Counted from the stretch's first letter, positions 4,407 through 45,385 are shown. The stretch is DNA of 64,000 nt from Lobosporangium transversale (GCF_002105155.1 NW_019028988.1:744001-808000); one strand, 5' to 3'. Notes: generated by a model not told the origin, from the letters alone. A program made the numbers and translations.

Positions 4407-6671
4407 ATGGATGACTTTTACCAATTCATGAGTCCTCTCGAGGGAGCAACCAACAACGCGAATGATAGACCAAGTACTCAACCACTCGCAGCACAAACAG
4501 GAAATGCTCAATCATCGTCGTCGACTTCGTCGACTTCCTCAAGGACCTCATGGTCCGCCTGGGGTGTCTCTTTCAACAAACTAATTGAGCGTGGTAAAAA
4601 GGATATGAACGAGTTTGTCGATGTCACCCGCAAAGATCTTTCTGAGCTTGTACACACGGTACAACAGGAACACTCGACTACCATCGAGTCTTTAAGCAAA
4701 AAAGTTGGCGACCTTAAAACAAATCTTCCTCCACTGCCTGCATCTGTCAATACTGCCTCAGCAGGGATCTTGGAACGTGTATCGACTGTTGTTGGGGGTA
4801 TCACCCATGAAATTAAAGAGGTTGCGACGGGTGTATCATCTAATCCTCAGACTGTCGCACCTGACAACACTACAGAAGCCAATGTTTCAACCGCATCAGT
4901 AACAGGATCTACTGATAGTCCTTCCTCTAAACAAAACGCAAATAGTCATGGAGCAACAGCATCTCCCAACGAAAAAACAGTGGAAGAGGGATCGCTGACT
5001 GATACTAGGGACACCATGGATAGCACTGCATCCAGGATTAAGCCAGACGAAAAGCCAAACTTTAGTTTAGCTAACACAGCTAGCTTACTTTCTGCCGGTG
5101 CCACAAGCTTGACACAAACACTGAGCTCTAGTACCAAGGATATAAGCTCAAGCGCAAACGAGCTCTTTAAGAAAAAGTTGCCAGCAGCAGCAGAAAAGCA
5201 TTTGGGTGAAGCAGACTTGTTCTTCAAGAACACTACAGAAACGCTCAAGACAAATGGACTTCTTGCAGAGCAATATGTCAACAAATTCGGAGCTGGTATG
5301 GCGAACTTTCTTAACAGTGCTGTGGTCATCTCGGCGCCAGGAGCGAAGGAAGCCACTCCATCCCGCAGCAAGAAAATGTTGTATGTATCTGGATCCAAAC
5401 ATATTTATATTAATAGAATGACAATGTCAAGTTTTCGTACTTTTTCTTTTTTATCAGATGGTTTTTCCGCTTCACCTCTTCATTCTTTCTAATGGCCTCA
5501 TTATCTTGTGATGTGGCAATTATAATAGCTTTGATAGAAAGGAGGCCATGCTCGAGAAGCTACGAATGGACCCTACAACGTTCACAGTCGATCCTATGAC
5601 TACTATCGCAGACGATGATATTATTGGACTTGAGCGCTATAAACGTTTCTTGCAAACATTCAACATGGCAGAATATCAGCAGAGGACCTCACGATTACTG
5701 AACGAATATCCAGAATTAAAGGCTTTGATGGGCAAACTTGGTAAAATAATTATTAAAGGTATTTATTCCGCTGAACATTATTCTACAAACTTTACTTACT
5801 ATCAATTATCTTCAAAATTTTGCCAATCAGTTCCGGCTGAGGTTGCAGATGAAGAGCTTTTCTGGCTTCGCTACTACTATCGCTTATATGAAATTGAGGA
5901 GGAGGAAAAACGACTCAAAAAGCTTGTACAGGGTATGATGTGGTGCATATATGGAATGCTAGATATCATGATGCACTTGTGCCGCCTGTAAATCCAATTC
6001 ATTGTTAGTAATACTAGTCGTCTATCGATTCTCTTTGTTCAGAAGCCGGAGCTGACCTTGCAGAGGAAGACTTTACATGGGACGACAATGATGGTGATGA
6101 AGATGACAGCGAAAATCAGGGAGAGTCAGGGGGCCAAGGAAGTGTCACACCCAAGGCCGAACAGAAAAACCAGGATACACTTACTCCAACAGCCAGCCAG
6201 ATCTTAAATGGTTCCCAACCCACAGATTCATCGAACATGAAGCAAGAGCCTCTAACTGCTGAAGCATTAGTCGTCTCTCTCTCAGCGCTCCCAATCCCAA
6301 GTAATCAGGCAGATTCGGAAGATGGCGACAAAACCAAATCGCGACCTGATGTGACATCGACTAGTACGCATTCTAAAGGCCCTGTTACTAACCTGAGCTC
6401 TACTAGGACGAGCGAAGATACATACGAGGTTGTTGACGGCGTAGAGACGCCAATTAGAGCTCCTTTGGCAAGTGTAGCTTCTCTCTCAACAGCGTCCTCA
6501 CCAGCATTGGAACAACTTGCCCATCAACAGAGTACAAAGCAAAAATCACCCGAATCCAAGGTAATAAGCTTTTTTATTGCTATTGTTTACTGGCGCTGTT
6601 GCTATTGCTAACCAAAACACTGCATTTATACTATCTTTTAGGATGAGGATGACTGGAGCGATTGGGAATGA
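4407..6671 (+). CDS. BSD-domain protein (DOS2/BSDC1-like); multi-exon
   Basis: ORFs 4401-5492, 5548-5991 and 6237-6611 are joined by GT-AG introns. The BSD signature is L..LVPAEVADEELFWLRYYYRL, followed by an acidic EEDFTWDD segment and a C-terminal DEDDWSDWE* (TGA 6669-6671). Confidence 0.85.
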
Positions 6672-7103
6672 GCTCATTATGAAAAAAGAAAAAAATAATA
6701 AAAAATAAAAAACAATAAACAGATCTTTTAAAAAATAAAAAAATAAAAAAATAAAAATAAAAATAAAAAATAAAAAAATAAAAAAAAAGAGGAAGTCTTT
6801 CTATTCTTCGTGTTTTAATTCTCGAGAAAATACTGTAGGTCTTGATGATTATTGTGTGATTGTACAAGACTGCATGTACAAAGAAAAAAGCACATGTTTA
6901 GAGAGCAAATGTGCAGTGGACAGATAACTGCCTGATACATCCAAAACGAGGTGTACAAGTTCCCCTGTCTACATATTGGATCGGAAACGTGAGTTGTGGT
7001 CTGAATATACCCTTTAGAAGGCTCTATTTTCTCTTTCTTAGCACACGAGTGGCATATTTTACATTATAAACAAAGGAATGTATCTATGTATATATATTTT
7101 AAT

Positions 7104-10100
7104 TTACAGGTTTTCATGAGAATGTACACGAGCTGGCATGGCCATGAACTGCCGGAAAAGGCTTCCTCGATGTTGCGTTGGTCTTTTCAAGGCTATTGGT
7201 TCAAATGCACTTAATCCTCTTCCACGCCACAGCTCGTTTTTCTCTTTGTCGTCATTTCTTTCACGATTCTCTTTATACATACTATCCAGACGCAGTCGTT
7301 CTAGCTGTTCTTGTTGCCCTAGCTCCGCAAGGTCCATGAGATGCCTCATTGTCGGTCGACCATGAGGGCAATTCCAAGGCTGATCAATTTCACCCATATG
7401 TCGCACAATTCTCTTCATCTGGCTATGGTTCAGGACGTGACCAATCATAACCGATCTTCTGCAAGCACGAGACGCAAATAGAGCACGTACTTTGGAGCAA
7501 CGAACCATTTTTTCTGAGGTTGATCCATTGTTTTGCTGTATGTTAATGGACTGTCGATGCTCATTCTGATCAATACTTTCGTTGCTATTTTTTTCCACGG
7601 CTTCGGGTAGCGCTGTCTGTTGAGACAGCAAGAACACAAGCTCCTCAAAGTCCTGGAAACCAAACACAACTTTCTCACTTACAGGCAGCGTGAGTAGCTT
7701 CAATCGGTGACTCACGGGCGCATCGGGGTTGTGTTCAAGATAAAAGCCATTCTTGTTCAACATCTTCATATGCTCTACAACTGTAATCTCCTCCTGTGCT
7801 GTCAGATATAGCTCCTTGGGCTGGAGAAGCCGCTGTGTTGAGAATATCGTCTTCGCTTGTAGTGTCTCAAAGTTGTATTTCTCATCTGAAGCATGCTGGT
7901 CAATCACAAAAATATCAGAACTAATCAGTTCTTCTCTGTGTCGCTGCCTGGCTCCTCTGATCGTAGATGATTTTGGATTTCCTTGATCCTCTTCGGCAGG
8001 GGCATAGTTGTCCAGACGAGCAACGATAAAGGCTTTGTTGAACTGTCCGAGAATCTTCATGCGCGCAAAATCTCCCTTTGCGATGACGCGGCTCAAAGAT
8101 GTTTGAGCTTTGGCATCATCCATGTTTGCAAAACTGGCATCTGACAGCTTTTGATTTCTTAACCGACGACTTCTTCGAAGCTTTGCACTATGTGTTTCTT
8201 CACCGACTTCTTCCACGTCATCATGTGCAGATTCCATCTGTTTCTTTTGCGCATGATCTTTCCTCAACTCCTTCCACTCCTGTTCTGAGCGGCGTACTTG
8301 ACGTATGATATTGATCCGTTGCGCCTTTTTCTTTTTCTGCTCGTCTATATCGAATCCTATCTCTATCCACTCCCGCTGGTCATCCTGTTGCACCGCAGAA
8401 TCTATGACTACGACACGCTGTCGTTGTTTTTGAGGCCGTTGCTGAGGAACAAGCTCTTGCTCTTTCTCACTATCGCTTATGCTTTCTTCATCTAGGCGTG
8501 TCTCGTCATTTAATGGATCATATTCTTCCAGCACATTTATTGAAGAGGCCGGGTGCACACTTAGTCTGGAGGAATCATTCGAATGAGGTGTTGTGTTCTC
8601 AACAATATTATTGGTACCTAAGATCGACGATGATTCTTCCATAGCTCCTTGCTTTGTCACTAATTCACGAATCATCTGGTCATTTCCATTACGAGTAATC
8701 TCGTTATCTGTAGCTGGGTCAAGATCTTCAGCTTTACGCTTTAAATTCTCAGAGCGTTGGACAAGGAAATTCCGTCCTGTGAGTGTTGACTGTCTATTAT
8801 TAGTTTTGTCTATGAAGTCCAATTTTCCCTGAACAGACAAATGGGAGGGCGGGAGTGAAGGTGGTGTAATGGGCTCTATAGAGAGAGCCTTTGAGTGATG
8901 TTTCAGCCTATACTCGCCTTCATTCTCTCTTGCATCATTCTCTACTTCTAGTGCCTCGTTCGGTATGCTGCCTTTATCTCCAGAAGGTTTGGAACGTAAT
9001 CTCACTGCAAGATCCGGTTCCTTGATGAGCTGCCTTGCTTGACTAACTGCGAATGTTGATCGGCTGGGTTCAAAAAGTTCCGTGAGTTTTGTACGAAGCT
9101 CCTCAATAATCATACGTTCATTATGCAAAAAGATAGTCCTTTTGTCTGGACTAACGTTGACATCGTAGTAAGACGTGGGCAGAATAAGATTTGCAACCAA
9201 AAAAGGGCTTTGATTGGTGTTGAATGAGCGGTAGACTTCGTTGATGACACGAGCAAGCTTAGGAAGAGTGCAGGGCCGACCGTTAATATAAAAATATTGT
9301 CGGTCAGTTGAAGACCTTCCTTTGCCAAAGGCTGGCGAGGATATGAATCCAGTCAATTTAATATCTCCTTTTGAGTCGAGTTCTCCTTCGTCCTCATTAT
9401 TTTCATTCTCAGCCTTTACCATGGCTCCCATGCTCGCTGCCGATATTCCTTCGACAAGACATAGATCAAATTCAATGACATCAGCCATAGCCTTAGGTCC
9501 AAATACGTTGATAATATTCTGTCGAACAGATGCATTGCCAATGGTTGCAATCTGTGTCACGGCAGACCTAGCAAAAAAAAAAAAAAAAAAAAAAAAAAAT
9601 TACTTACTATATTTTCTAACAGTGATCGTTGTCGCCCAAGCTTAAGTTTATGCGATTCATACATTTTATCCATTTGCAAAACGCAGCTGATCCTGACATT
9701 GGGGACGATCAATGCATAAGCCTGGACGAGCCCGATACACTTGGCGTACTCTCGCTTTATGTTTTTGACAAATTCGCTTCTGCGGACGGGCATGCCTTCG
9801 AAGAGATTGGAGATCTTGACAATCGTTCCTCTAGTCATCGGAGTCGGTGTTTTTGACTTGATAGTTCCATCTGAGGTGTATTCAACCAAGACACCAGTAG
9901 GCGATGATCCAGTAGATGTTGTAACAGTGAGATTTGCAAGTGCGCAAAGAGATGACAGAGCCTCTCCTCGGAAACCAAATGAGCGAACATGTGCCAAGTC
10001 ATTAAAGGACTGCAGCTTTGAGGTGTAATGTTTCAATGCTGTATTCATAAAGATTTTTATTTTTTAGAAGGGTGTTAGACCTTGATGATTGTTGTATTAT

Positions 10101-10490
10101 TATAGAATATATTAAAATTGGTGGTAAAAAGATAACATCACATACCAAGCGTCTCGAGATTTGCATCTGTAATTCCACATCCATTGTCCGTAACAGTGAT
10201 GCTCTCGAGACCATTTTGCTTGAACTTGATAGCTATTCGAAAGAAAGAAAAAAAAAAAAAAAAAAAAAAAGAATTATTGCAATGTTCTATTAACAATGAC
10301 AAAGTTGATGCTGCGCCCATGCTGTCTTTTTTTTACCAACAGAAGTTGATCCTGCATCGAGACTGTTCTCCAGGAGCTCCTTGACTGCCGTAGCCATATC
10401 AAGGACGACCTGTCCTGAGCATATCCTGTGGACAGATTCCTTGTCAATAGCCCTAATGGTGTTATTGGTTTGGCTGGCCATGGTTGACAT
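7104..10490 (-). CDS. PMS2: MutL-alpha mismatch-repair endonuclease subunit (PMS2; fungal PMS1); 4 exons
   Basis: GHKL motifs are present ([32 protein letters not shown]). The C-terminal endonuclease motifs are [17 protein letters not shown] and [11 protein letters not shown], with the PCNA-binding-type QRLLQP. Confidence 0.95.
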
Positions 10491-10596
10491 TCAAGAAGAT
10501 GCATGGATGTCGTGATCAAGTTATAATTATTTAAGCCACCAACCGTGGTAAAATCACGATGCTTTAATTTTTACAATACACGACTAAGCAATTAAA

Positions 10597-11687
10597 TTAG
10601 AATCTAGACTTGGCATAAACGATCTTGCCACCTTTGACGATCTCTTTAAACTCATCTGATTCCCTCCAAGCGGCAATATCGGGGTTCGCCAGGACAGTCT
10701 CATGAACCTTCCAGAGCAATGGGGATGCGCGGAAGAGTGCTACAATCTCTTCGCCCCTGGGGAGCTCTGCAAAATGATCGATAACACTGACTAGGTGGAT
10801 GTCCGCCAGGGAGAGCTAGAGCAAAAATTTAATAGTATATTAATGACACCGCTTAGAGACTGTAGTTGTATTTCTTTTTTTTTTTTTTTTTTTTTTTTGG
10901 TGTCTTAATAAAGCAACGTACCTTCTCCCCAAAAAAGTGGCCATTGGAGCCGTTGCGTTCAAGATGTTGCTCCTTGATCTTGATCCAGCGAGGAATGTTT
11001 TCAGTCGTCCATGTCTCGAAAGCCTCCTTACGCTTGTCTGCATAGGTCCATGTCATGCACCGAAGGGAGCGATCACGAAGAGCGTGGATCGAGCTGTAAA
11101 AGGCCTTGATAACGTGCTCCTCATACTCATTTGAGCCAAGAAGATCAAACTTTTTCGCCAGATAGAAATCAATCACAATAGATTCCGTCAGGGTTAACTA
11201 AAAAAAAAAAAAAAAAAAAAAAAGACGGGCCGTTGGAGTGTTCAAAAAAAGATGATTTAGCTTCTTTTTTCTTGTTCTTCTCTGCTTTGAACCAATTACA
11301 ACTGGACTTTGGTTAATACCTCCTTTCCCTGCGACCTGATGTGCAGCAATGGTGTAAGACCGAATGGTGAATCGTATTTTTCCTCGTCCCAGTCCTATGT
11401 AAAAGGTAATAAACAGCTTGATTAATTTATTATTCAGTGTTGATCAAATGATATCTTAAATCAACTATCTCTATGATTACAGTTGGGAAGCTATTCTTCC
11501 AGTTGATCTTGCCAAATGCAAAAAGATGACGCGCCGTAGCTGCCAAGCATGAGATCTTGAAGTAGATAAGCTCATAATCAACAGTTTTAGGGTCCGCAGT
11601 CAAAAGACGAGCGTTCTCTTCATTTGAAGATTCTGTATGGAAGGAGCGAAAAAGTTGCTTGCCTGAGGTGGCTGTAGTAGTAGTCAT
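10597..11687 (-). CDS. Glutathione S-transferase; multi-exon
   Basis: N-terminal YELIYF...ARHLFAFGKINW, an exon with SPFGLTPLL, then LTES..IDFYLAKKFDLLG, HLERNGSNGHFFGEK-LSLADIHL and a C-terminal P.IAAWRES. Confidence 0.85.
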
Positions 11688-12038
11688 GGTACACTGGGGA
11701 ATGTGGAAAGCTTGTAGACGAGTCGAGATTGATTTTGAAGACCAGACGGGTAACCCCAATATTTATTTATTTATGTATAAATTTTTTTTTTTTTTTTTTT
11801 TTTTTTGATTATTCATCCAACGGCGTAACAATGTACGTGAAATAGAGCTACTGCCATGAGAGCAAACATTTGTCTGAAACGATAACTAAATCCTTTCCAT
11901 TTTTCATTTTTAACCACGTTCATCACATTGCCTCTTACGAGGGTTAGGTCTTGACTGAAACTATTGTCAGAAACACAAATACTGTCTATAATCGTTTATT
12001 ATGGTAATGTAAATACTGTGTCGGTTTAACTAGTGTCG

Positions 12039-14283
12039 TTATGACAAGGCTTGGATAAAGGCTGTCTTGATGGCCTGCGCAGCAGCCTCAACTTCTGTGG
12101 GTGTATGACTTGCACACATTGACACGCGAATTGATGGTCGAGGTAAGTGCATTTCCTGGCTCTCAACATACTTGGCTCTGCTGATCAACACACCATCGAT
12201 AGCAACCTGTCACATAAAAAAATCTCATTAGCAAGCAACATCACAAATAGGTAATTCAAACTAAGTAATACAACTAAGTAATACAAACTACCTTAAGCGC
12301 TTACCTTATCCACAACTGTCTGTAGCAAACATGTCTCCGAATCCCTCGTAGTCACACCCAGGGGCGCCAACCTTGATTGAAGAAATCTCAGGTGGATGAT
12401 CGGTGATTCAGGACTAGAGCTGACTTCAATAAACTGAGAGGCTGTTAAAATAACCTTCAAAAATGCTGCAGTATTCTCGCGCAAGGACTTCAGCAGCTCC
12501 TCGCACTGTCCTGCCTCCAAAAGCCTAATTGCCTCAGAAGCACAAACAGTGAGCATTGCAGGAATGGAGGCTGAGAAGACAAAGGCTTGGCCTGAAAGAC
12601 GTTGGTGATCTACTACTTCTTTAGGTCCTGCACAGAAGCCGCCTGCGGACGCAAGCGTGTTAGCCATTGAGCCAACAATCATATCCACATCCTTTGGTGA
12701 AACGTTGAAAACTTCAGTCAGACCACGTCCTGTCTTGCCCAACAAGCCAAAAGAGTTGGACTCATCCAAAATCACGCGGTATTTGTATTTGTGCTTGAGC
12801 TCCATGATTTTATCAAGTGGTGCAATGTCGCCATAATTTTGGAAAAGACCCTCTGTCACGATAAACCGACGAGTCAAAGGTCTCTTTTTGGTCTAGAATG
12901 TTAAAGCACAACAGCTTATTAAAAAAAAATGACTTCGAGAAAGATATACGTTACGATATATAATCACGATACGAGGAAAAGATCAGGGTCCATACAGGGG
13001 GTGACTCTTTTTGGATCGTCTGCAGTACACGCTCCAAGTCTTTCATATCGTTATGCTTAAACCACTTGATGTTAGATCGAGAAATTTGCGTGCCTTTTTG
13101 AATAGCAAAATTACATCCGTCGTCACTAAATTAAACCCATGGTTCGTAACGCAAACTTTGATAAGCAATCGCTATTCGTTGCCATATTATGTCTTGGTTC
13201 TCTAAATATGACAGAGCTGCAGCAACTTACACGACAATGATATCTCCGCGTTTCGAAAAAGCAGCCATGACGGAAGAAATAGTCGAGAAACCTTGTGCAT
13301 AAATGATTGCAGATTCTGTGCCCAAGAACCGTGCAATATCCTTTTCTAAGTTGATGTGGACATCTATTAAAGTATGTATAAAACAACAATAGAATAATAA
13401 AGAGAAAAATTGAGAGGCGTTAGACAAGGGAGCCAATTAAAACCGCCAATGAACACAATGTAGACTTCCAGGGCTTACCAAGAGTGCCATAGAAGCCAGG
13501 AGGGCCGCATGAACCGACACCATAGTTATGAAGTGTCTTGATTGCTTTGTCCTATTCAAAAGTGTCCATTTAATATATTTATAGCTTCAGTAGCTGTGAC
13601 AGAAATACTTTCTACCTCAAACCAAGTTAATCATGGCTATGCTGAGTTTCTATACAATACCTTGATATCTTTATTTGAAATGAAGTCAAGATAATTAGCA
13701 CTTGCAAAGTTTAATAAGTGCGAGCCAGTAGATTGAACTACGGGTCTAGGTCCCTGTGCACTAAGAAAACAATCGAGCATAAGAAAGGCGTGTGAGAGGA
13801 TGCTAACCAGAATATTATGGAATTAATTAGAAGCTGAATATCCTACGATACCTCGTGATAACTTGAGCCGAATCCAGTTCCATGCGCTGGAAATCGTTGA
13901 GAGGTTTAGTCAGTGGTTCAGGTTGCCACTCTGCAACTAGCTCATCAATTTCCTAATAAATGACAAGTGTAAAGATTATAGTGTCAGGGAATTCATGTTT
14001 CCACTTGAGAGATAACAATTGGCTATCAGATCTCATATGCGCACTCATGCACTCATACTTTCTCTGTTAGAGGTATTTGAGTCTGGTCAATGCGGTATTT
14101 TTTGGAAAGCATATATTTGACTGCAAAAATGGCCAGGCCAATCTCTAGAACCACTCGAAATGGGTCATTTTGATAGGAGTTTTTAATGTAATTGATGGCG
14201 ATGGCAGACCCAGGGACAGCCTCTATGGCACGCGAAACAGTGAATAAAGTCTGGTTGATAGAAGAAAGGATGGGGTTGTCCAT
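12039..14283 (-). CDS. LCB1: Serine palmitoyltransferase subunit 1 (LCB1/SPTLC1); multi-exon
   Basis: Motifs include [16 protein letters not shown] (TM), [38 protein letters not shown] and [21 protein letters not shown] lacks the PLP lysine found in LCB2, which points to LCB1. Confidence 0.93.
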
Positions 14284-15649
14284 GGCAGAGATGATGATGA
14301 CAAAAAAGAGAATCAAAGGGATGCAGATCAGATCAGTCTTGGGCCAAGGCACAATTGATTTAATCATGTGACAGGGACCGAATCTACGCTCCTATTGGTG
14401 AACACTGGTTCTAAACTTGGGTCAAAGGTACACAAATGAGCTCTCTGATAATATTCGTCAGCCTCTTTCATCTTCTCTAGAGGTAGTTACCACAACCACA
14501 CCTTACATATCTAAAAACAATGACCTTGCTAGTCATTTTCACTCCACTCGCTTATCTGGCGGCCTAAGTCTGAATGGCTATATACCCAAGTACCAACCGC
14601 ACTACACAAAAGAAATGTTGCACCATGGCATTTGAAGTCACCACATCTCATATTGAGCCTATATAGTCTATTAATGCACTCTTCACGACAAATTAGTTAC
14701 CACACCCTGTGAAGGGGGGCACCTGAACAGTCTTTATTACTTCTACAGAACGTCATCCATATATAGCCTGTAGCCCTAACAAACATAGCGATACATGGTA
14801 GCGCTCTCCCTTTATACTCTCCGTTTGTAGGCTCCTCACCAGTTTCTTTTTTAAAAATGTTAAAGGGCTATTGCTAAATTGCTACATCTTAAAGCAACGA
14901 GACAGATGGTAATGAACACAGGTTAACAAGACATTAAATGCTCATTAATTGCAGTGGCGACCTGTTCTTTGTCCCTTTTGCCACCAATTTTTGACTAAAT
15001 GATCTGCGTGTTTATCATTGTATCTCATTGAGGTTAACCTAAAAACCACCCATCTTTTTCACCTACCCTTCTTCCTTTTCTTCATTGCTTCGCTTTCAAC
15101 CTTGTTTAGTGTCTAGGCTTTATATTTGTTTTCTTAATACTTGTTTGCTTCAGCTTCCTTCTGTTTGTTCATGCAAATTGATTTCTTTGCTTTTTTTCCC
15201 CCTTCCATGTTGTTAGTGAGGATGTCGAGACTTCCACTTTGTAAGTTTGCTAATCTAATTTTGATCATAGAGCTGTCGTTTAGAAGGGTGACCGAGTCCC
15301 AGCTTTGTACTGATTTTGGTGAGAAGATATGGAATTGGTGTAAAGACCATCATGAATACTACTAAAAAAAATCATGTCTACTCTCAATGACGCCTCCACT
15401 TCATCGTCAACTAAATCAACCGCAGCGAACACACCAACTGCATTCTTGAACGAAACCACTACTACCACTGCGGTTATTGCTATCGACTACATCTCTAAAC
15501 TCTTGTTGCTATACACCGGATTATCCACCCTCGGGAGAATAACTGATAAAAAATGTAGAGTGACATTAATGATGCGGGTGCAAGTCTCGTAACAGATAAT
15601 ATAAATGGATTGATCGGAGCTGTGTTTGTGGGGTTGGCTTTTATCTGTT

Positions 15650-15735
15650 GATCTGTAAGGTTTTTAAAGTTAGTCCAGAAATTCAGGGGCAAAAGATTCA
15701 ATAGAAAGGATACAGGAGACGGAAATAAACAGAAT
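15650..15735 (-). ncRNA. Candidate omegaRNA scaffold or element right end downstream of the Fanzor-like ORF
   Basis: It lies immediately 3' of the RuvC ORF stop codon. Its last ~44 nt are similar to 59163-59206, and the similarity stops abruptly after TTACAGATC. There is no expression evidence. Confidence 0.3.
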
Positions 15736-18465
15736 TTACAAATTTTTTTGTGGATGTGCCGGCACCCAAATACTTGTGTCTAGCGTCATGCGCTCTGCAG
15801 CCGGAGCAGGCGACTCTTCCATGGGCTTGTACTTTGCAGGTCTCTCTTGCCTCTCAATTTGAGCAAGACCGATTCTTGCGATGTTTTCCGCCCCTACTGC
15901 GTCACGGTCGAAAAATACTTTACATGCCCGGCAATATTTAGAGCGAGAGTACACCGCCTCTAAAAAGCTATCGCGGAGGGGTCAGGGACAGCGGGCGCTG
16001 GTGTAAAATTCGTGCGCTCCTACGGCGAAGTGTCTTCGTACTTTAACCTAAGCGTTTCAAATGGCAGTCGTTTATCAACAAGGGTTCTATGGCTTTCCAG
16101 CTTTTCTTATTTTTTTTAAAAAAGTAATACCTGTGTGACAAAGTGTCTCGTTATAGCAGTGTGCTTGCTGGGAACTCCTTTACTACTTTCATAGGACCCC
16201 AGGCCGATGACAAGCACTCCTTTTTCCCCGAGTATCTTCAACACTCGCTGCACCGCGTAGTCGGACGTAGCTCGTTGAGCCTTTCGTAAGTCCCATTTTT
16301 TTTAGGTGCCATCCGGATGTAGAACTCTTGAAGTACATCCAAATTCTTTGATCTTGTCTGTGTCTGGGACTCCTCGTTCATCCATTGAAAGCACTCATTG
16401 TACGATCCCTTCCAAATACAGGGATGGCGTTCTCAACCTCAATCATTCCTTTTTCACGCTTCCTTTTTTTCAACAGGTGATTGAAGCGGAGGACCGGAAG
16501 GTACAAGAACCTACTTCTCACCTTCACCGTTTACCGCAAGTTAGGGTCGTGGGGGTCTAGCGAGGGAAACGTAAGGGTGTTAACAATATCAGGATCGCAT
16601 CCAACGACAGTTGTGGTGTTTGTGGATGAGCATCGCCCTGGTTCGTTGAATGTGAGCTCAACGTTTTCAAGCAGTTTGGAGCTCCTCTTCCAGTATATGT
16701 TTGCGTAGCCTTCATCTATCAGATCTTTACCGGCTGCCTTTGGACGCGGCGTGTTGAGGAATCCTTGAGAAAGCTCCAATTCCTAGCTGGGGCCTTCTTC
16801 ATCTACGTCAGACTGCTGCTGTCTCTTCATCTGGGTTGTGTCATAGGCAAGTAGATTCAGAACAAGACCGTTGGTAGAAATCGTTTCTTTAAGTTTGAAA
16901 AAAAACTCAATGTCGCTCATATTTTCGTTAGTTTTCTCGACATCGAACTGAAAAAAATAAAGAAAAAAAAAAAAAAAAAAAAAAAAAAGAGTATGAATAG
17001 AGAGCATTTGATTGCAGAATATGCATGAAAACACCTTACACAAGGTTACACCATTGCGTTCCTGTAGTGCTGCCTTAATGATGTCTGTACTTGGCCTGAG
17101 TAGCTCTGACGCTCTTGGAAATGAGGTCTTTTTGGGATCAAAACCTTGCACGTCCCCCAATGTGATGTCTATTTCCTTACTTGGGGGAAGTTCAGTGGTG
17201 GTCTTGAAATGTTCATAAGCGAGGAGATAGTGGGGTGTTTCTACTGCCCTTGTTTTTTTGCCCTCGCGTAAGCTGAATTGGGGCCACCTTGGCTACTTAA
17301 AAGAAGGGTGGCGAGACAGAAGGAATAGTCAGTGCTATCCAAGACCTCGTCCAGTGCATTTTTCCTCGACCTTGCTGCCCCTGGCAGCCGCATGATCCTC
17401 TCAATGTCCAGGCCAATCGCCCAGTATGCATAGTGGCGTAGTTGGTTGAGGACAACAACTGCCCCTCGGATTTGGCTTGCAATATTATCCCTTTCATTTG
17501 TGTGCAGCTCGTCTTTCCTTGCCATGGAAGCCTTGATAGGGTGCTTACTGCTGTAGCTGTGAACAACCTTCGTAGCCTTCAAGTTCCTAATTGGTGTATC
17601 TTCTTTTTTAGCCCTGTGAGGCTTCTTGCCTTTGTGCTTCCGCTTTTGTTTTTTCTGTTGTTTCTTTTTTGCCTTTCTCCGAAGTGGTGGATGCTTAAGG
17701 CCCGGCCTATCGTGCTGACGGCAGTTACTGATATCAACTGTGCGCCTATCCAATATGCTCGGCTTGTCAGAAAAGATGGGCCAGAACTAGCTTTTACGTG
17801 ATCCTTCCGCTATATAGAATGATGTTGCGTCTCTAGTTATCGAACTCATTGTTCGATGGCAATGCTTGGGCCGACATTTGATGGCCAGAAGTAAAAACGT
17901 GGAGCTACTCTGAAACGGCCTTCTTTAGAGGCTGCGTTCCTTCCCAGCATCTTACTAGCTTTCCTAAGGTAATCTCGAAGCATTTTGTTGTAGTTCTTGC
18001 TCCACGCAACCTTTCGAACTAATCGAAGATTATTAATCAGGTCCAACGTCTTGAGGTTCCTTGAGTAATCATTGCCTGCGATGGCAGGTTTAGCGCTTGA
18101 ATAACGTTGTCCATGTCGTAAACCCCAAACTTCCGTCTACGGTATGGAAGAGTCGCACTAGGATGCAGACTCGTTCGTACTTAAAAAAATCAGCCTTGGG
18201 ATATCACGATCCTATCATTCTCCTCATTATGACACCCTTTGCATGGGTCAGCTTCATATACACACAGGCAGATATCGAAGACAGAGCCAAGGCCTGTTGC
18301 CAGCTGATTCTTGTTCTGGACGCTCAGGGTGTGGACCTTTCGAAGGCCCTTCTGGATGCGCCTCATGACTTGAGGACGAGTCCAAACCTCGTTCCGAGGA
18401 TTTCTCTCGAAGGTGCTCATATCATTCTCCAAAGCGTCCATATTTTTTTGGCTTCTGGCTTGCCA
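15736..18465 (-). pseudogene. Degenerate Fanzor (TnpB/Cas12f-like RuvC + zinc finger) gene with an upstream FEN1/XPG-like nuclease module; at least 2 introns
   Basis: RuvC-I is VVGCDP(D)IVNT (Asp 16594-16596). It is followed by LDVLQEFY...KKWDLRKA and VLVIGLGSY, then RuvC-II GAHEFYTSARCP (Glu 16009-16011), the zinc knuckle CRAC and RuvC-III FDRDAVGAENIARI (15901-15909). The upstream module has CVYEAD, VIS..DFF and GNDYSRN (18065-18076). In-frame stops (e.g. 15982-15984, 16531-16533, 16783-16785) and several frameshifts disrupt it. Introns lie at 16048-16130 and 16948-17034. Confidence 0.8.
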
Positions 18466-18486
18466 TTTTGAATTTTAACATTGTCT

Positions 18487-18731
18487 CATATAGTTTTGAT
18501 ATCGATCCTTTGCTTCACAGGCCACATCAATCTTTATTCAGTTCCTTTTGTTTGGATTGGGGTTTTGTCCCAGTCAATAGCAGAGATTGACAAATAAATA
18601 TAAGCTCTCTCATGAACGGCAGATTGGAAGAAATAGCATTGAGATACCAAAGTGAAATCATCTCGGTATACAGCATATAGTGTTGATGTCGATCCTTTGT
18701 TATACAATTTTTTTTCAGCTTCTTTTGTTTG
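18487..18731. repeat. Imperfect direct repeat pair (~187-bp offset)
   Basis: 18487-18512 and 18674-18699 match at 24/26 nt. 18537-18554 and 18714-18731 match at 16/18 nt. Confidence 0.75.
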
Positions 18732-19599
18732 CAGTGGCCCTTGCTTTGTGAGGAATTTAATGATTTATAATTTTGAACAGGGGTAGTAAATACATTGACA
18801 GATTTGACTCGGTGTGTAGGAACTGGTTTTGAAACAGGTGATTACATCCCTGTCAAAGATAACAACAAAAGAAGAATGTCTTTTTTCCCCTCTTTCTTCT
18901 TTTTTATCAGAGAATGGGTTCGGATGTCGCTCTTTGCTCCAACAGCTCCAGTACTTTTGGAATTAGAAAACAAAAAAAAAAAAAAAAAAGATCCCTATGC
19001 AAAATGTGTTTCTACATGTGTAGAAACCAAAGAGACGCTTCAGCTGTTTATTCAATAACCTGGTGCATGTTCGTGTACATACAACTGATAGTGATTGATG
19101 AAATAATAAAAAAACCCCCGCGATGTGTAGACAAGAAGCACAACAACTGTTTGCTCACATCCATTTTTTTCACCGTTGGTGTGCCTGTATGTCTTTTAAG
19201 CTTTCTGTCTGGTCGTTTAACACAAGGAACTCCCAGAAAAAAAATACCTCGCATGGTTGGTGTCAGGTCTGAAAACAACAATAATGCAATGCTGTGCGTG
19301 GAAGATAGGGTCTAGAAACTATACCATTGTTATGCTGACTCACCGAAATCAACTGCGATCACAACTGCTACTCATGCTCTGTTGCCAAGGACTTGAAAAG
19401 GGATACAAACCCCTTCTTCCTTACTCTCATAATCGTTCACATCCTCTCAATACTTTCTTTCGCCGTAAATGTTCATTACATCTGAATCACACAGGTATTT
19501 CACCATTCACACTCCAATATAGATATATGTATCACCTTAGGTATGATATGTTCCCTCTGGTTTCCACAGGCCCAACAAACTCTATTAGCAGTGTTTACC

Positions 19600-19850
19600 A
19601 ACTCAGATATATATATCAAGGGAACGCAAGAAGACGAGGAAGCAAACGATGTGAAAATCGAGTCTCGCCGAGCTGTACAGGAAAAGATCAAGTTAGTCAA
19701 GCTCCATGGTGCGGTAGAATGAATCAACTCAGATTGCACTCCTTTCAAGTCGAGACTACGGCGGCGAATATTATCACTGCTACATTACACCAGTCAATAA
19801 ATAAACGATACAATGGGCTTCCGAGCGGATGCTAGGGTCATGCGAAAGTC
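19600..19850 (+). pseudogene. Possible hAT transposase relic
   Basis: Broken frames read ...EKIKLVKLHGAVE*INS... and, across a frameshift at ~19813, NDT-WASERML. This resembles the hAT KL...v..I.sS / TRW.S...ML pattern, but the match is very degenerate. Confidence 0.25.
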
Positions 19851-20012
19851 TTCATGAGCTTTTTTATTTGCACAAAAGAAGCCAGGATAGCTCCTTGACA
19901 GTTTAGTTTTCGATCATTTATTTCGACGTCGAAATAAAATTTCGAGACAATGCCCATGGATTGCTGGGTTTCTTATGGACGAAGGGATAAAATGATGAAA
20001 TGTTTGTTCCTG

Positions 20013-20046
<34 letters not shown>

Positions 20047-20113
20047 GGTGAACCATGGAAATCCATTCTTTTATTTTAAAGCGTTCATAACATTTATTTG
20101 CACAATCGAAACA

Positions 20114-22093
20114 ATGCATGCTACTCATCTTCGCTTCTCATCAGTCCTTACTCTGGCATCTAAGCGTCTGTCTGAACATTCCTGTGCCTCTCTTCGACAT
20201 GTGTTCTCTACTACATGCATTAGTAGACAGCATCGCTTTGTAGCTCCCAAGTCAGTTCTCCTACAACAACAACTGCAAAAGCAACAGCGAGCATTGTTTT
20301 CGATCCAGAAACAGCTCTATGAGAAGCACAATCAACACAATAATAGCACGACAATCGAATCACTCCTATCAGAGACGCATGAAGAAGGTCATAACAAGAG
20401 TTCAAATGACCTAAAGCATTTAGACCAAAAGTTTGAAGCAATAGGACCTCTGGATGGTTTTCGTGTTCTGGATCTAACTCGCGTTCTGGGTAATAATTTT
20501 TGGAAAAAGAAACAAATAAATCGAACGATGCGTGCGACCATTCTAACCGTTACAAATGTTATGCTTGATGTCCCCCCTTTTTTTACCGATTGAAGCTGGA
20601 CCCTATTGCACACAATTACTCGGAGATCTTGGGTAAGAGGCGTCTGGTAAATAGTATCTTGACCCAAGGAAAAAAGGAAAAAAAAAAAAAAAAAAAAAAA
20701 AAACATGTCTAACGATCTGATTATTTTACTTTTGCTATGAATATAATATTAATATTAAAAAAAGTGCTGAAGTGATCAAAATTGAGAATCCTAAGGGTGG
20801 TGATGATACCCGCGCATGGGGTCCTCCCTTTGCCAAGAACATGGATCCGTCTGACTCGACCCCTCCAGAGAGCGCTTATTTCTTAGGTGTCAACCGGAAC
20901 AAGAAATCTATTACAGTCAACATCCGATCAGTAGAAGGTCGACAGTTGATTCACGATCTTGTCAAGAAAGTAGATATCCTAGTGGAGAACTATGTACCTG
21001 GAAAATTGGATGAAATGGGATTGGGTTATCAAGAGTTAAGCAAGTTAAATCCGAGACTTATTTACACATCCATTACTGGTATGCTGTAGTATTATATGAT
21101 AAATATGTGGAATGTTACCATAAAAAAAAATAGCTTCTTATTTCAAGCGATGATCTTAAAAAAAAAAAAAAAAAAAAAAAACTTAAAGGATATGGCCAAA
21201 CGGGGCCATATAGGACGAGACCAGGATACGATGTCATGGTCGAGGCAGAAGGTGGATTAATGTATATCACAGGCGAGCAAGATGGAACACCCGTGAAAGT
21301 AGGCGTTGCTGTGACAGGTAAATTAATTACAAATAACTTTTTTAATCTTAATTCTCAAAAGAGAGACGCATAAGATGAGTTAAAAATATCGACCTTTTTG
21401 GCTTTAGACTTGACCACAGGACTTTACGCCCATGGAGCCATCATGGCAGCGATTATCGCGCGTTACAGAACAGGACGTGGTCAGCATATCGACTGTTCAC
21501 TATTGGACTCTCAGGTCGTGACATTGGCCAACATTGCAAGCTCATATTTGATCGCAGGACAAGAAGCCAAAAGAATGGGTACGTCACATCCCTCGATTGT
21601 TCCCTATCAAGTACTGCCAAGCAAGGACTCGCACATTATGATTGGTGCTGGAAACGATGGACAATTCAAGATCCTTTGTTCAATCCTTGGCTTGGAACAC
21701 CTGTGTGAGGATCCCGCATTCAAAGCGAACAAGGATCGTGTCCGAAACCGTAGTGATCTTATCAAGATTTTGACAGAAAGACTTCAAACGAAGAACAATG
21801 ACGAATGGTTAAAGGCATTTGAAGGTCGGGGAATCCCTTTTGCACCTATCAACAACATTGCACAAACATTTTCACATCCACAGGTGATTGCTAGAGATAT
21901 GATCCAAGAAGTTGATCATCCAAAGGCTGGCAAGATCAAACTCACAGGACCAGCTGTTAAATATTCGGAGACCAAGCCAAAGATTCGTACCCCACCTCCT
22001 CTTTTGGGTCAGCATACAGATGAAGTCCTTAGAGATATCCTAGAATATAACGAAGATAGGATTCAGGCCTTGAAGGAGAAAGGAGCTGTTTAG
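20114..22093 (+). CDS. CoA-transferase family III (CaiB/BaiF; SUGCT-like) with a probable mitochondrial presequence; multi-exon
   Basis: Motifs are [77 protein letters not shown] and [12 protein letters not shown]. The N-terminus is R/S/L-rich. Confidence 0.93.
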
Positions 22094-22358
22094 ATTGGTT
22101 AGACCGAGGAAGAAAAAACTGAGCTGAATGATCTTAATGCAACCTCTATAGATTAAAACCATTAAAGAGATACAAATAGAAAGAAAAAAAAAAAAAAAAA
22201 AAAAAAAAAGACTATGCGGAGCAAATAATAACCTCACTTGAGTAATATGCCTGATGCCTGATTTTAGACGAGTATATCGGAAATGGACGAACAAACAAAT
22301 AGATCTTATTTTATTAAATGTGGGAAACAAAATTCTATTACTTATTTTCCAATGCTCA

Positions 22359-23770
22359 TCACACAACAACAGTCTGTTGTTCAAGCTGATAGCGCTTCGA
22401 AGGCTTCTGTGGCAAAACAGGACAAGTGCCTCTCTTGGGAATTTGGGGGAGAAATGCGACTTGAGGTCTGTATTTAAGGCTTCTGCTCGTAGTTGTCACT
22501 CGGAAAGACCTAGGCATGTAGTTGAGTACCACATGACGAATGATTCTCTCAGTCAATGTCTAATTTAAAATAAATAAATAAATAAAGCGACATCAGTAAA
22601 CGCTCTTCTTTCTTTTCCTTTCTTTTTTTCTTTCTTTTTATTACGTCTCTGTTTTCCAATACCTGGCCATAAATGATCTTGGCGTTCTCCTTGCTATCTT
22701 TATAGCGTTCCACTACATAATCGAACCGTTGTTCACGATAATCCTTTAATGCTGCTTCAACGTCGTTCAATTTAGTTGATACCATGTCATAGATGCAGTT
22801 GGATAAAACCACAGAGTCCTGCATAGCGTTTACTGCACCCTGTCCAGCGCTTGGTAGCAACTATGTTATATGCGATGTTTTAGTTCATGTAAAAGATGTG
22901 TAAGATGGTCTAAAAAAAAAAAAAAAAAAAAAAAAAGTTTTTTTTTTTCAATACCTTGTGACACGCATCCCCAATGAGTACAACCCTTTTGTGATTCCAA
23001 GTCTCGAAGACCTTGTCCTCCAAGAAGACGCGTGAAATAATGTCTTTGGGTGTGGCATTGATCAAATCTCCCATAGTGCCTCCAATGGGGACTAAAAAAT
23101 CGCTAACCTCCTTGATCATGGATTCGTTCGCCTCCGGTCCCCATTCAGCGTTCATCAACTTCTCATCTAGTGAGCCTTTTGAGGCTGCTGCTAATTGAAC
23201 AACAACATTCCAGCAGATTTTATTCCCAGGGACATTACAAGCGCTCCACTTTGGTATTAAAAAAAAAGTACAAAGCAACGAGTCAAAAGCAGTACATACT
23301 TTTTTTTAGAGAAATATAGAATGACAACTAGTACAAAAAAAAAAAAAAAAAAAAAAGAGAGGCCTTACGGTGTACGGTGTTCCTTCTCCAATGACCTGAT
23401 GCAAGTATGCTTCTTTCTGTTTCACAAAAGGGTATTTCTCTGGGTCGACTGGATCGGTAGTTCCAACCAAGCAGATGTAGCCTTTGCTCAGCGACTCCTT
23501 GTCAGATTCTGGAAGGATCCCTTCTTTTTCCAGTTGCTTATAAAGCTCTTCTCTCACTCCCGAGTAAGCCCCATCGGCTCCTACCAAGATATCTCCGGTA
23601 TATGATGTGCCGTCTGCGCATGTGATTGTGACACTATCGTCATCTTGAGCAATTGAAGTCACTTTCTTATTCAGATGAATCCTCTCAGGTGCAATTCGCT
23701 TAAGAAGGATGTCATATAGACTTGGGCGAGCAAAGAGATGATGTCTGTATCCGATTCTGTGAGAGTCATT

Positions 23771-42905: not shown

Positions 42906-43542
42906 TATGTTGATGTGAAGCAACCCTTTTTTTTTCTCTTTCTTTTTCTCTTTCTTTCTCTTTCTATTTTTGGATACTATTCGGTACTGGCAGTATGTCT
43001 GGCCTTAAATTCCTAAGCGGTGAAAATCTGTAGGATCCTGCCACTGATGATCGTGGTTGTCGTCGTCTTCTTCGCCTTCGTCTTCCCACACGACTTCGAA
43101 ATCGAGATCAAAGACAATAAATGAGAATAAGGTGATAAAGAGCAAGGTAGTGGGACGGAGCAAGATCTTGGCGAGCTTCAGATAAAGTGCTCGATAAGTG
43201 AACCGTACAGGCTCGCTGATGGCGATCCTGAACAATCCGAAGAATGGGGCAGTAAATGAACGTTTGTCTGTTCCAAGACCAAGAAGGCCAAGCATTTGCT
43301 GTTGTCTGTTCCTGAGGGATCCTGCTTTTGGTAAGGGGTTTGCTGTCCTTCAATTTTTTTATGGAATTGTCGGAATTATGTTGGCAAGCATGGTGAATCG
43401 GGCATTGGGCAATGTAGTAGCCGCCACCCAAGTCACGGGGAGAGGTGTGGGCACTCCGTTATTCTAGAACTAATGACTGGCTTTACAATTTTGCTGCTCC
43501 TTCACGCCACATGACTTATCTAGTTAGTCACACACTATTTAA

Positions 43543-43661
43543 CAGAGGGTCAAGCTTGTCGCTCTTTTTGGTTAGTCCTTTTCAATTATAAGAGTTTTGT
43601 TAAGTAAACCATTTATATTTGAAAAGGGCTAACCAAAAAGAGCGACAAGCTTGACCCTCTG
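43543..43661. mobile_element. 119-bp MITE with 49-bp TIRs and an 8-bp TSD (hAT-type)
   Basis: The left arm CAGAGGGTCAAGCTTGTCGCTCTTTTTGGTTAGTCCTTTTCAATTATAA matches the reverse complement of the right arm at 47/49 nt. CTATTTAA is directly repeated at 43535-43542 and 43662-43669. Confidence 0.93.
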
Positions 43662-44050
43662 CTATTTAATTCAACCTTTCCCACCGACCATTTCATACAT
43701 TCAGGCTCTAACATGTGCAACAGTAATAGTTTACAAATGCAGGACGTATGCACATAGAGATGTGATGATTGGCCGTAACATGGCCAATATCGTCCATTCA
43801 TATCTACTCCACCAACGGTGGCCTCGCTATCTTCAATCGATAGACAAGTGCGGAGAGTATCCTTGGATTAAGATAGTTGTTCAGTACACGTCAAACGTCA
43901 AGTATCATTCGAGACAGAAGCCGTAGAAAAATTAGAAAAACACAAATAACCATTAAATTTGCATAGTCTAGAAACTGCATGTTTGCAAAGCCATGTCAAT
44001 GACATACTTTTAGAGAGAACTGTCCCCAGCCAACCACATTTTTAGATCAC

Positions 44051-45385
44051 CAGTCACCTGAAATAAAGTTTGGACAAAATGGATTTTCTTGATTTTTTTT
44101 TGAACAACCTGGACAAACAGCTCATATGCAACATACATAAAGACTTCATCAATACACATGAAATTTTACATGCTCACTAAAGAGGTCAATACTGTTATTT
44201 ATTGGGGTTTTGAAGACGGCATTGTTAGAGTAGCAAAAGTGCCATGTAGGTTCAATAGTGAGTGTTCCTACCATCGACCCCATTCACTTCTTCCAGCCTT
44301 TCGGGCATGGTAGCGACAAGTCTGGCCAGCCTCTCTTGCGGTAAATTATTCCACTCTTCGATAAGAGCCCGTGTGAGAGTGGGAAGATCTCTTGGCCCTT
44401 TAGCGCGCCTATCGAGTGCATCCGCAAGAAGTGACCATACATGTTCAATAGGGTTCAAATCTGGGGAGCATGAAGGCCAGTCTGGAATCCTGGGGATGCT
44501 GTTTTTTCGCGCCATTCTTTTGCAATCTTACAAGTATGAACTGGAGCATTATCCTCCATAAGTATGCCATCCTCTACCTCAGCCATAAATCTGGCTAGCT
44601 CGCCTTGATATACATCTTCCACGAAACACCGTCCATCTTTACGACCTCTTTCAAATACAACCAACCGAGACTTTCTGGTTGCTGTGAACGCCCCCCAGAC
44701 CATCAGAGTTGTTCTACCACTTTTGAAAGTGGGTGCGAGGCAATCATGATCGTACTTTTCCTCTACTTTACGCCAAACTCTTATTTGACGAAAATGCTCA
44801 CCAACTTCAAATGATGATTCGTCAGTCCAAACTACCCGATTCCAGTCTTCCATGGACCAACTCATATATTTTTTGACAAACTGCAGCCTCCTTTTTATAT
44901 GTCCTTCTTTTAAGAATGGTTTTTTTACTGCAATCCGGCTGAAAATACCCAGTGAATGCAATGCCTTCGCAACTGTCCTCTCGCAAACTTTGTTCGGCAA
45001 TTGGTTAGTGATATCATTAAGAGCACACCTTCTATTCTGCTTAGTATGGCGAACGATGCTCCTGAGGTCCCGTTCACTTAGTACTTTGGGCCGTCCTGGG
45101 ATCGGAGTGCAAGCAGTGGTGCCTCTTTCTTGGTACACCCTGATAATATTAATAACAGAGGTTCGGGGTACACCGCGTTGCAATGCGATTTCCGCAGCCT
45201 TCATGCCCGCGAGGTGCATTCCAACGATGATACCTTTATTCTCAATGTCTAAGTGTCTCGCCATGGTGGTTTACTCAAGCTGTTTGTATGTGGAAAACAG
45301 GAAGGAAAGAGATTGAAGGAAACGCTTCCCTACGTAACTATTTCAATATTTTATTTTTTTGTCCAATCTTTGTTTCAGGTGACTG
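44051..45385 (-). mobile_element. Tc1/mariner (IS630-Tc1-mariner) DNA transposon, 1335 bp, full length
   Basis: The TIRs are CAGTCACCTGAAATAAAGTTTGGACAAAA (44051-) and, as reverse complement of the right end, CAGTCACCTGAAACAAAGATTGGACAAAA (2 mismatches). They enclose a transposase. Confidence 0.95.
44252..45264 (-). pseudogene. Tc1-like DDE transposase split by a single frameshift
   Basis: ORF 44455-45264 carries a paired-like HTH, GRPK, VVWTDES, MVWGAF and MEDNAPVH. ORF 44252-44515 carries WPSCSPDLNPIEHVW. The frame switch is in the T6 run at 44502-44507. Confidence 0.9.

Follow-up and report, generated by a model that had tools for sequence, protein, structure and literature searches.

A degraded locus in Lobosporangium transversale raises the question of whether a Fanzor/TnpB-like RuvC nuclease and a FEN1/XPG-like 5' nuclease, whose remains lie next to one another there, were once encoded as a single protein and, if so, what such a protein might do for the DNA that carries it. 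A first-pass annotation of the 64,000-nt stretch that we analysed (hereafter the window) had proposed a fusion of this kind from motifs read through stops and frameshifts between 15,736 and 18,465. All the motifs it quoted were found on the minus strand at the claimed positions, in frames that shift along the relic. These include EAD (18255-18247) and NDY (18073-18065) in the FEN1-type part, together with the RuvC-I aspartate (16596-16594), an HE containing the alternative RuvC-II glutamate (16014-16009) and DRD (15909-15901) in the Fanzor part, where all three catalytic residues (RuvC D, alternative Glu and RuvC-III D) are still present.

The relic and the element that carries it

Going by sister gene models in L. 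transversale, the relic is one dead copy of a multi-copy element of about 4.4 kb. Its parts, in window coordinates, are as follows.

15642-20000, minus strand: whole element copy, delimited by a step in contig depth and by divergent flanks at the right end
18463-20000, minus strand: 5' part of the element, by depth as repetitive as the remainder; no N-terminal match above shuffles
17818-18462, minus strand: FEN1/EXO1-type domain remnant (cap helix, EAD, broken DSD, H2TH with NDY); profile E 1.4e-15
17052-17822, minus strand: Lys/Arg-rich linker and opening section of the Fanzor REC region; sister model P0053 is 81.5% identical over 17822-17250
16948-17051, minus strand: coding intron A, its donor degenerate in the window copy; from the sequence and a break at profile position 637-644
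16131-16947, minus strand: WED, RuvC-I, bridge helix and glycine-substituted canonical RuvC-II, with stops, frameshifts and about 105 codons lost
16048-16130, minus strand: coding intron B, GT..AG; break at profile position ~1074
15814-16047, minus strand: alternative RuvC-II glutamate, Cys4 zinc finger (TNB) and RuvC-III DRD; PF07282 E 5.4e-5, profile E 5.4e-34
15740-15768, minus strand: first exon of a candidate guide scaffold, with a 6-bp hairpin (15768-15751) and an A-rich linker; from the sequence and a comparison of loci
15653-15739, minus strand: predicted 87-nt intron in the candidate scaffold, with donor, CTAAC branch site and CAG acceptor; from the sequence
15642-15652, minus strand: last exon, 11 nt long with ATA at its end; after splicing it is predicted to complete a second hairpin

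The C-terminal piece of the relic matches the Pfam model Cas12f1-like_TNB (PF07282) at an E-value of 5.4e-5, which lies below the 26.3-bit cut-off, and the 5' pieces by themselves match no XPG model in Pfam. A profile built from 12 of 18 homologous proteins aligns collinearly with the relic over positions 79-1151 of 1153, in seven segments with E-values from 8e-7 to 2e-35.

The copy had been called dead, and its XPG N-terminal part missing upstream, and both statements hold. The first ~99 codons, which would carry the equivalents of FEN1 D34, D86 and the gateway Lys/Arg, are gone, about 105 more are deleted at 16,899, and many stops and frameshifts interrupt what is left. The FEN1-type remnant, which aligns with residues 100-326 of the sister model ORZ05748.1, itself contains four frameshifts or deletions and one stop, and its active site is not intact, given the loss of ~99 codons and a frameshifted DSD. 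Other copies of the element have a different continuation at 16,899 and sense codons at the relic stops at 16,785 and 16,533. A frameshift-aware search for the N-terminus reached a best score of 34 against a maximum of 48 in 40 shuffles, and an apparent N-terminus at 19,957 (MGIV ... LGSPLY) was rejected at 25.5 against a shuffle maximum of 26. An old tandem duplication of ~180 nt lies within 18487-18737, where the nuclease N-terminus is lost.

The element, from 15,642 to about 20,000, exceeds the span that was first flagged. Its right (3') end is exact at 15,642, and its left end is bracketed only, at ~19,970 to 20,045, by a masked T run. Summed contig depth, a measure that does not equal copy count and was taken from DNA runs that may represent the source strain, was 6,184-10,775 in the element in run X1, with a single bin holding a masked A run at 2,602, as compared with 74-130 in the flanks; the step recurs in runs X3 and X4. 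At 15,642, eight contigs in X1 and eight in X4 depart into flanks that agree only 0.44, and two further contigs in each of these runs depart at 15,641; run X7, which contained almost only C-to-T differences, was left out. Depth over the last ~50 bases (15642-15690) rises in X1 to 14,756-23,214, about twice that of the element body, which would fit the existence of gene-less 'ghost' ends; the doubling could also stem from overlap between contigs. In L. transversale, nine sister gene models with identities of up to 94% are spread over eight contigs, and the gene model ORZ22893.1 appears to be the window locus itself. Linnemannia gamsii has six members of one 90% cluster on five contigs.

Pfam identified no family in any of the six frames of the element's 5' part, no transposase was found in 18,500-19,990, and no terminal inverted repeat was convincing, the only inverted match being one of 7 nt (15,639 versus 19,992). 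Helitron2-type asymmetric repeats were likewise not found at the element; the left bracket has a T run, and T and A runs are frequent across the window. The right end finishes in TA in the window and in three metagenome loci (L004, L005 and L009); Tc1/Mariner-type carriers such as Spu-1 are marked by terminal inverted repeats and duplication of a TA target. The element carries a conserved 3' end and a variable flank, as Fanzor1-bearing elements do. A 36-nt palindrome is present near the left end (19910-19945).

The element lies between a spliced aminotransferase gene (12000-14400, minus strand) and a spliced CoA-transferase III gene (20091-22090, plus strand), which are divergently transcribed. 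Elsewhere in the window, what is left of the 3' part of another Fanzor, which belongs to a different clade of the family (43735-43848, plus strand; profile E 7.7e-13), directly follows a hairpin with 59-nt arms (43540-43664). At 44051-45385 lies a Tc1/mariner element that has a DDE transposase frame and terminal inverted repeats of 29 nt; its ends are, by eye, unlike the right end of the Fanzor element.

Intact homologues and their two active sites

With the 3' half of the relic as the query, a first search of proteins of 707-2,015 aa returned two matches among 1,962 candidates, one of which, from Mortierella alpina, also matched the relic's 5' module and, when used as a query itself, gave 18 proteins among 7,990 scored. 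A HMMER scan of 1.84 billion representatives then yielded 2,069, 1,106 and 329 clusters at E-values of 1e-3, 1e-10 and 1e-30, respectively, the best 150 of which were examined. The 163 homologues gathered include 35 of at least 900 aa, 34 with both halves and one with the FEN1 half only, a count that favours fused proteins, as the query held both halves. Among 25 matches to a RuvC-only query, nine have the FEN1 domain, 15 start inside the family profile and resemble truncated models, and one (P0183, 882 aa) is without it. The two modules are also joined in the sister model ORZ19297.1, which, like ORZ05748.1, has a complete XPG N-terminus and which extends through to the zinc finger. The proposed fusion is thus found in a single open reading frame among homologues, and we regard this architecture as near certain.

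The intact proteins are ~1,150-1,300 aa long, are collinear with the relic and come from eight genera of Mortierellaceae, with both halves present in Mortierella, Podila, Benniella, Dissophora, Entomortierella, Actinomortierella, Linnemannia and Lobosporangium. One of them, P0003 (1,183 aa), reads without interruption through the positions of both coding introns on a Logan contig of 4,910 nt from a run of unstated type, which suggests a spliced transcript. Breaks at these positions recur in other loci, at intron A in L002, L006, L011 and L013, and at intron B in L001, L002, L003, L006, L007, L009, L011, L012 and L013. In L012, further co-oriented Fanzor and FEN1-domain fragments at 7379-10102, downstream of a full-span copy, suggest clustered or nested insertions. 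On viral contigs, none of 107 candidates was related; among the matches listed for BFVD, the Fanzor and FEN1 matches were separate proteins; and in the ESM Atlas the one cluster obtained, from Mucoromycota (score 0.98, 58 members), had the TNB only.

Profile and fold searches matched the two halves to FEN1/EXO1/Rad2 and Fanzor1, in keeping with the first-pass annotation. A single-sequence search of the PDB with P0002 gave nothing under an E-value of 1.7, and a 21-sequence profile was needed, which found FEN1, EXO1 and Rad2 at about 1e-14 and SpuFz1 at 1.8e-8. Pfam matched XPG_I/XPG_I_2 weakly (E 0.0017-0.15) in three of 17 intact proteins, and the FEN1-type domain may have been overlooked because of this. 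An AlphaFold2 model of P0003 was generated (pLDDT 72.9, pTM 0.52, with the pose between domains poorly defined). Structural superimposition of this model gave matches to human EXO1 (Z 18.9, rmsd 3.4, 273 aligned, residues 2-304), FEN1 (Z 18.4) and XRN2 (Z 15.0) on the one hand, and to the Fanzor1 proteins PpFz (Z 19.8, rmsd 6.8, 479 aligned, residues 435-1179) and SpuFz (Z 16.8) on the other, the Fanzor1 matches spanning residues 435-1181; Foldseek gave E-values of 4.7e-10 to SpuFz and 4.1e-9 to FEN1. As modelled, the intact proteins consist of an EXO1/FEN1-fold domain (residues 1-308), with helices at 85-117 and 124-137, a linker of low pLDDT (337-420) and a full Fanzor1 (435-1180), with the REC-WED-RuvC-TNB fold of solved Fanzor1 found in the predicted structure. 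The FEN1-type domain shares ~16% identity with FEN1, EXO1 and XPG over the ~270-residue fold, and as to its subfamily FEN1 and EXO1 tie, at 57.8 versus 57.7 bits and Z 18.4 versus 18.9. By sequence profile, a short TNB stretch scores higher on Fanzor2 L79, at 42 bits, than does SpuFz1 over a longer stretch, at 36 bits.

Both active sites are conserved in an alignment of 21 sequences that are 20-50% identical to P0003. In FEN1 the metal ligands are D34, D86, E158, E160, D179, D181 and D233. The seven corresponding acidic residues and two gateway basic residues of the family are each found in 19-21 of the 21 sequences (D80, D186, D188 and D238 in all; K87, R94 and D166 in 20; D34 and E164 in 19), and the NDY core of the H2TH is conserved along with gateway K87/R94. 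In the RuvC domain, D941 and the glycine at the canonical RuvC-II position (G1080) are invariant, an alternative glutamate, E1117, occurs in 16/21 (one D and four gaps; 16/17 ungapped), and the RuvC-III aspartate D1154 in 16/21 (five gaps; 16/16 ungapped). This is the arrangement described for Fanzor1, namely an aspartate, an inert Gly/Pro at canonical RuvC-II, an alternative Glu before the zinc finger and a RuvC-III aspartate (PMC10530073, PMC13565253). The published Fanzor1 motif, D-X(125,275)-[TS][TS]-XX-C4-X(5,50)-RD (PMC3627910), can also be read in P0003, from D941 through TS at 1120-1121 and cysteines from 1124 to RD at 1153-1154.

The FEN1 domain accounts for 15 of the 26 best-conserved columns. 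Separate trees for each half, built from 27 proteins (28 supplied, one removed for its short RuvC part), have eight of 12 supported splits in common and one in conflict, and the correlation between the distances of the two halves is 0.61, where permutations reached 0.35 at most. From the conservation of both sites and the agreement of the half-trees, the fusion is old and stable.

A candidate guide RNA at the right end

The guide RNA of SpuFz1 spans the end of its element, with two stems and a linker, the second loop being dispensable (PMC10432273). At the right end of the window element, the candidate scaffold would be formed by a hairpin and A-rich linker followed, after an intron, by the terminal exon, and the guide itself would come from the DNA flanking that exon. 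For comparison, thirteen metagenome loci were fetched; with the window, and minus L011 (which has no end) and L009 (94% like L005), these make 12 independent loci. A GTAAGT lies within 200 nt of the RuvC end in six of the 12 (shuffle mean 0.43, maximum 3 in 300), an A-rich exon-end motif before GT, defined after looking, occurs in six (shuffle mean 0.04, maximum 1), and four are without the 3' hairpin/donor motif. Eight loci have a hairpin that ends 10-15 nt ahead of the donor site, with sequences that are unlike. In these loci, which were chosen after looking, the hairpins average -7.5 kcal/mol, against -4.3 at 123 other donor-like sites (P 0.0005); only three of the eight beat their own shuffles, and the window hairpin is not better than its shuffles (39/200). 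At the position of the window's G-U (15,754), a G-C pair is found in most sister copies, and the donor is the canonical GTAAGT in all the sister contigs, seven in X1 and nine in X4.

Once the predicted introns are removed, the window, L004, L005, L007 (where the acceptor is non-canonical) and L009 each give a hairpin, a linker and a terminal hairpin that finishes in ATA. The same ATA is the point at which L005 and L009 stop matching, the similarity of L004 ends and the window copies diverge at 15,642. A contiguous terminal-hairpin pattern taken alone was rejected, as it occurs in two of 12 loci, with a shuffle maximum of 2. A short hairpin sequence for which L005 would have to lose its second 3' intron is continuous in L002. 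No Rfam family matched the candidate scaffold at gathering level.

In run X5, which we took to be RNA-like by guess and from its spliced host genes, contigs over intron B and the 3' intron were of unspliced form only, though both neighbouring host genes were spliced; because these contigs come mostly from dead copies, they do not show that splicing is absent. One X5 contig (2,815 nt, depth 214) carries an element right end (corresponding to 15642-15800) with the 3' intron donor deleted, a form also seen at single-copy depth in DNA runs X3 and X4. From these sequence comparisons, assembly of the guide scaffold by splicing seems to us a little short of an even bet. If the scaffold does need splicing, this would explain why such loci could fail to work as cloned genomic DNA, and it would represent a new control point.

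Possible roles and relation to known systems

The observed basis for any account of the fused protein is its one-ORF architecture, the conservation of both active sites, and the numerous copies, whose right end is sharp and whose flanks differ. We favour, with a probability of roughly 60%, a reading in which the element's right end and flanking DNA would supply a guide RNA, with which the Fanzor1 half would cut the empty site; the tethered FEN1/EXO1-type nuclease would resect the 5' ends of the cut, and homologous recombination would then copy the element back in, a form of restorative homing in which resection is built in. That the cut is RNA-guided, and how its target is chosen, are proposed here by analogy with characterised Fanzor1, the SpuFz1 cut leaving 5' overhangs (PMC10432273), and resection by analogy with FEN1/EXO1 chemistry. 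A benefit of resection for recombination is suggested by an engineered human EXO1-Cas9 fusion, with which HDR goes up and NHEJ down (PMC11107001). The role of Fanzor cutting in eukaryotes has been stated to be unknown (PMC10432273), and the fact that clades of 20% identity have all retained a resection-type nuclease joined to Fanzor1 is a pointer to the purpose of the cut. The two separate active sites in one protein make the homing idea addressable. A fuller version, which we consider unlikely, would combine a spliceosome-built guide scaffold, a Fanzor1 cut, EXO1/FEN1 resection and copying by host recombination in a transposase-free, self-sufficient element; such an element, if real, would amount to an exonuclease editor of natural origin, with splicing controlling the supply of guides.

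The FEN1-type domain might instead act on RNA, trimming the guide from the 3' tail of the mRNA or removing R-loop RNA and so releasing the enzyme. The candidate scaffold sits in the mRNA tail and would need to be freed at its 5' end, XRN2 has the same fold (Z 15.0), and EXO1/FEN1 enzymes also cleave RNA in hybrids, as yeast Rad27 reportedly does. We nevertheless think this quite unlikely, as known Fanzor1 proteins make guides without such a domain (PMC10432273) and as the gateway Lys/Arg and H2TH, which bind duplex DNA ends, are conserved.

There is a slim prospect that the fused protein is the element's entire mobility machine, cutting and resecting imperfect new sites into which host repair would copy the element, with no transposase. 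The element does lack a transposase and a clear terminal inverted repeat, its insertion sites are many, and both active sites are kept across very distant clades; yet a guide from the donor flank would target the donor's own empty site rather than new ones, the transposase search covered the element itself and a partner could act in trans from elsewhere in the genome, and transposase-free Fanzor elements thought to be non-autonomous exist (PMC3627910). Improbable to a like degree is a later role in which the domain clips flaps when a separate transposase (for example of rolling-circle type) or host synthesis copies the element, independently of the timing of the Fanzor cut. The tie between FEN1 and EXO1 would suit this, as would a left end that adjoins a T run in the manner of Helitron2-borne Fanzors (PMC3627910), which are described as having asymmetric terminal inverted repeats, terminal hairpins and insertion after TTTT; however, Helitron2-type asymmetric repeats were not seen, such runs are common in the window, and this end is only bracketed. 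Chance adjoining of two unrelated relics, which the differing frames and the lack of an XPG Pfam match to the 5' pieces alone might have suggested, is refuted by the 34 of 35 long proteins and the sister ORZ19297.1 that join both halves, and sits ill with intact one-ORF homologues in eight genera, collinearity, continuous repeat depth and matching trees.

The Fanzor half of this protein has already been catalogued as Fanzor1, and the fused XPG/FEN1 nuclease appears to have gone unremarked. The supplementary tree table of Saito et al. 2023 (PMC10432273) assigns ORZ22893.1 to branch FZ1, and it also lists an 834-aa L. transversale Fz1 model that begins at the basic linker, a 1,786-aa Linnemannia protein and an FZ1 entry auto-named 'Rad2 nuclease'; a term search of the available supplementary tables found no XPG or FEN1 term. 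The available part of the Yoon table holds many Mortierellaceae Fanzor entries and no XPG or FEN1 term, and the available Jiang supplements contain none of the XPG/FEN1 terms searched. The accessible text of PMC10530073, PMC10711439, PMC13565253, PMC10691335, PMC10432273, PMC11071296 and PMC3627910 (Bao and Jurka 2013) does not describe a Fanzor-XPG/FEN1 fusion, and no Fanzor-XPG/flap-endonuclease fusion was found in a search of mostly open-access literature.

Like Fanzor1 of Spizellomyces punctatus (SpuFz1) and Parasitella parasitica (PpFz), the family has a full predicted REC-WED-RuvC-TNB fold, a rearranged RuvC with the alternative glutamate, and a multi-copy element with a conserved right end and variable flank. 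It differs in having a FEN1/EXO1-type domain of ~300 aa and a basic linker in front, giving proteins of 1,150-1,300 aa as compared with 400-700 aa for Fanzors (PMC10432273), in the lack of detected terminal inverted repeats, and in a candidate scaffold broken by one or two predicted spliceosomal introns. With TnpB of IS200/IS605 and IStrons (PMC13565253) it would share a right-end guide, here a candidate, and a proposed mechanism in which the empty site is cut and recombination follows; unlike those systems it lacks TnpA. The group I intron of IStrons is in competition with the guide RNA (PMC13565253); in the present family, by contrast, predicted spliceosomal-type introns would have to be taken out for the guide RNA to be built.

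With FEN1, EXO1 and XPG (Rad2) the N-terminal domain shares the ~270-residue fold, the seven acidic ligands, the gateway Lys/Arg and the H2TH; those known enzymes are encoded by single-copy housekeeping genes, whereas this one is borne by a mobile element and fused to a predicted RNA-guided nuclease. Engineered exonuclease-CRISPR fusions, which are said to include T5 exonuclease-Cas12a, are laboratory constructs, whereas the Mortierellaceae fusion is natural, old and diversified. By analogy with engineered human EXO1-Cas9 (PMC11107001), in which repair is steered by attaching a 5' exonuclease to a guided nuclease, the family may be regarded as a natural counterpart of constructs designed to increase precise editing, and its variants number in the hundreds, in a pool of 329 clusters at an E-value of 1e-30 or better, many of them fragments.
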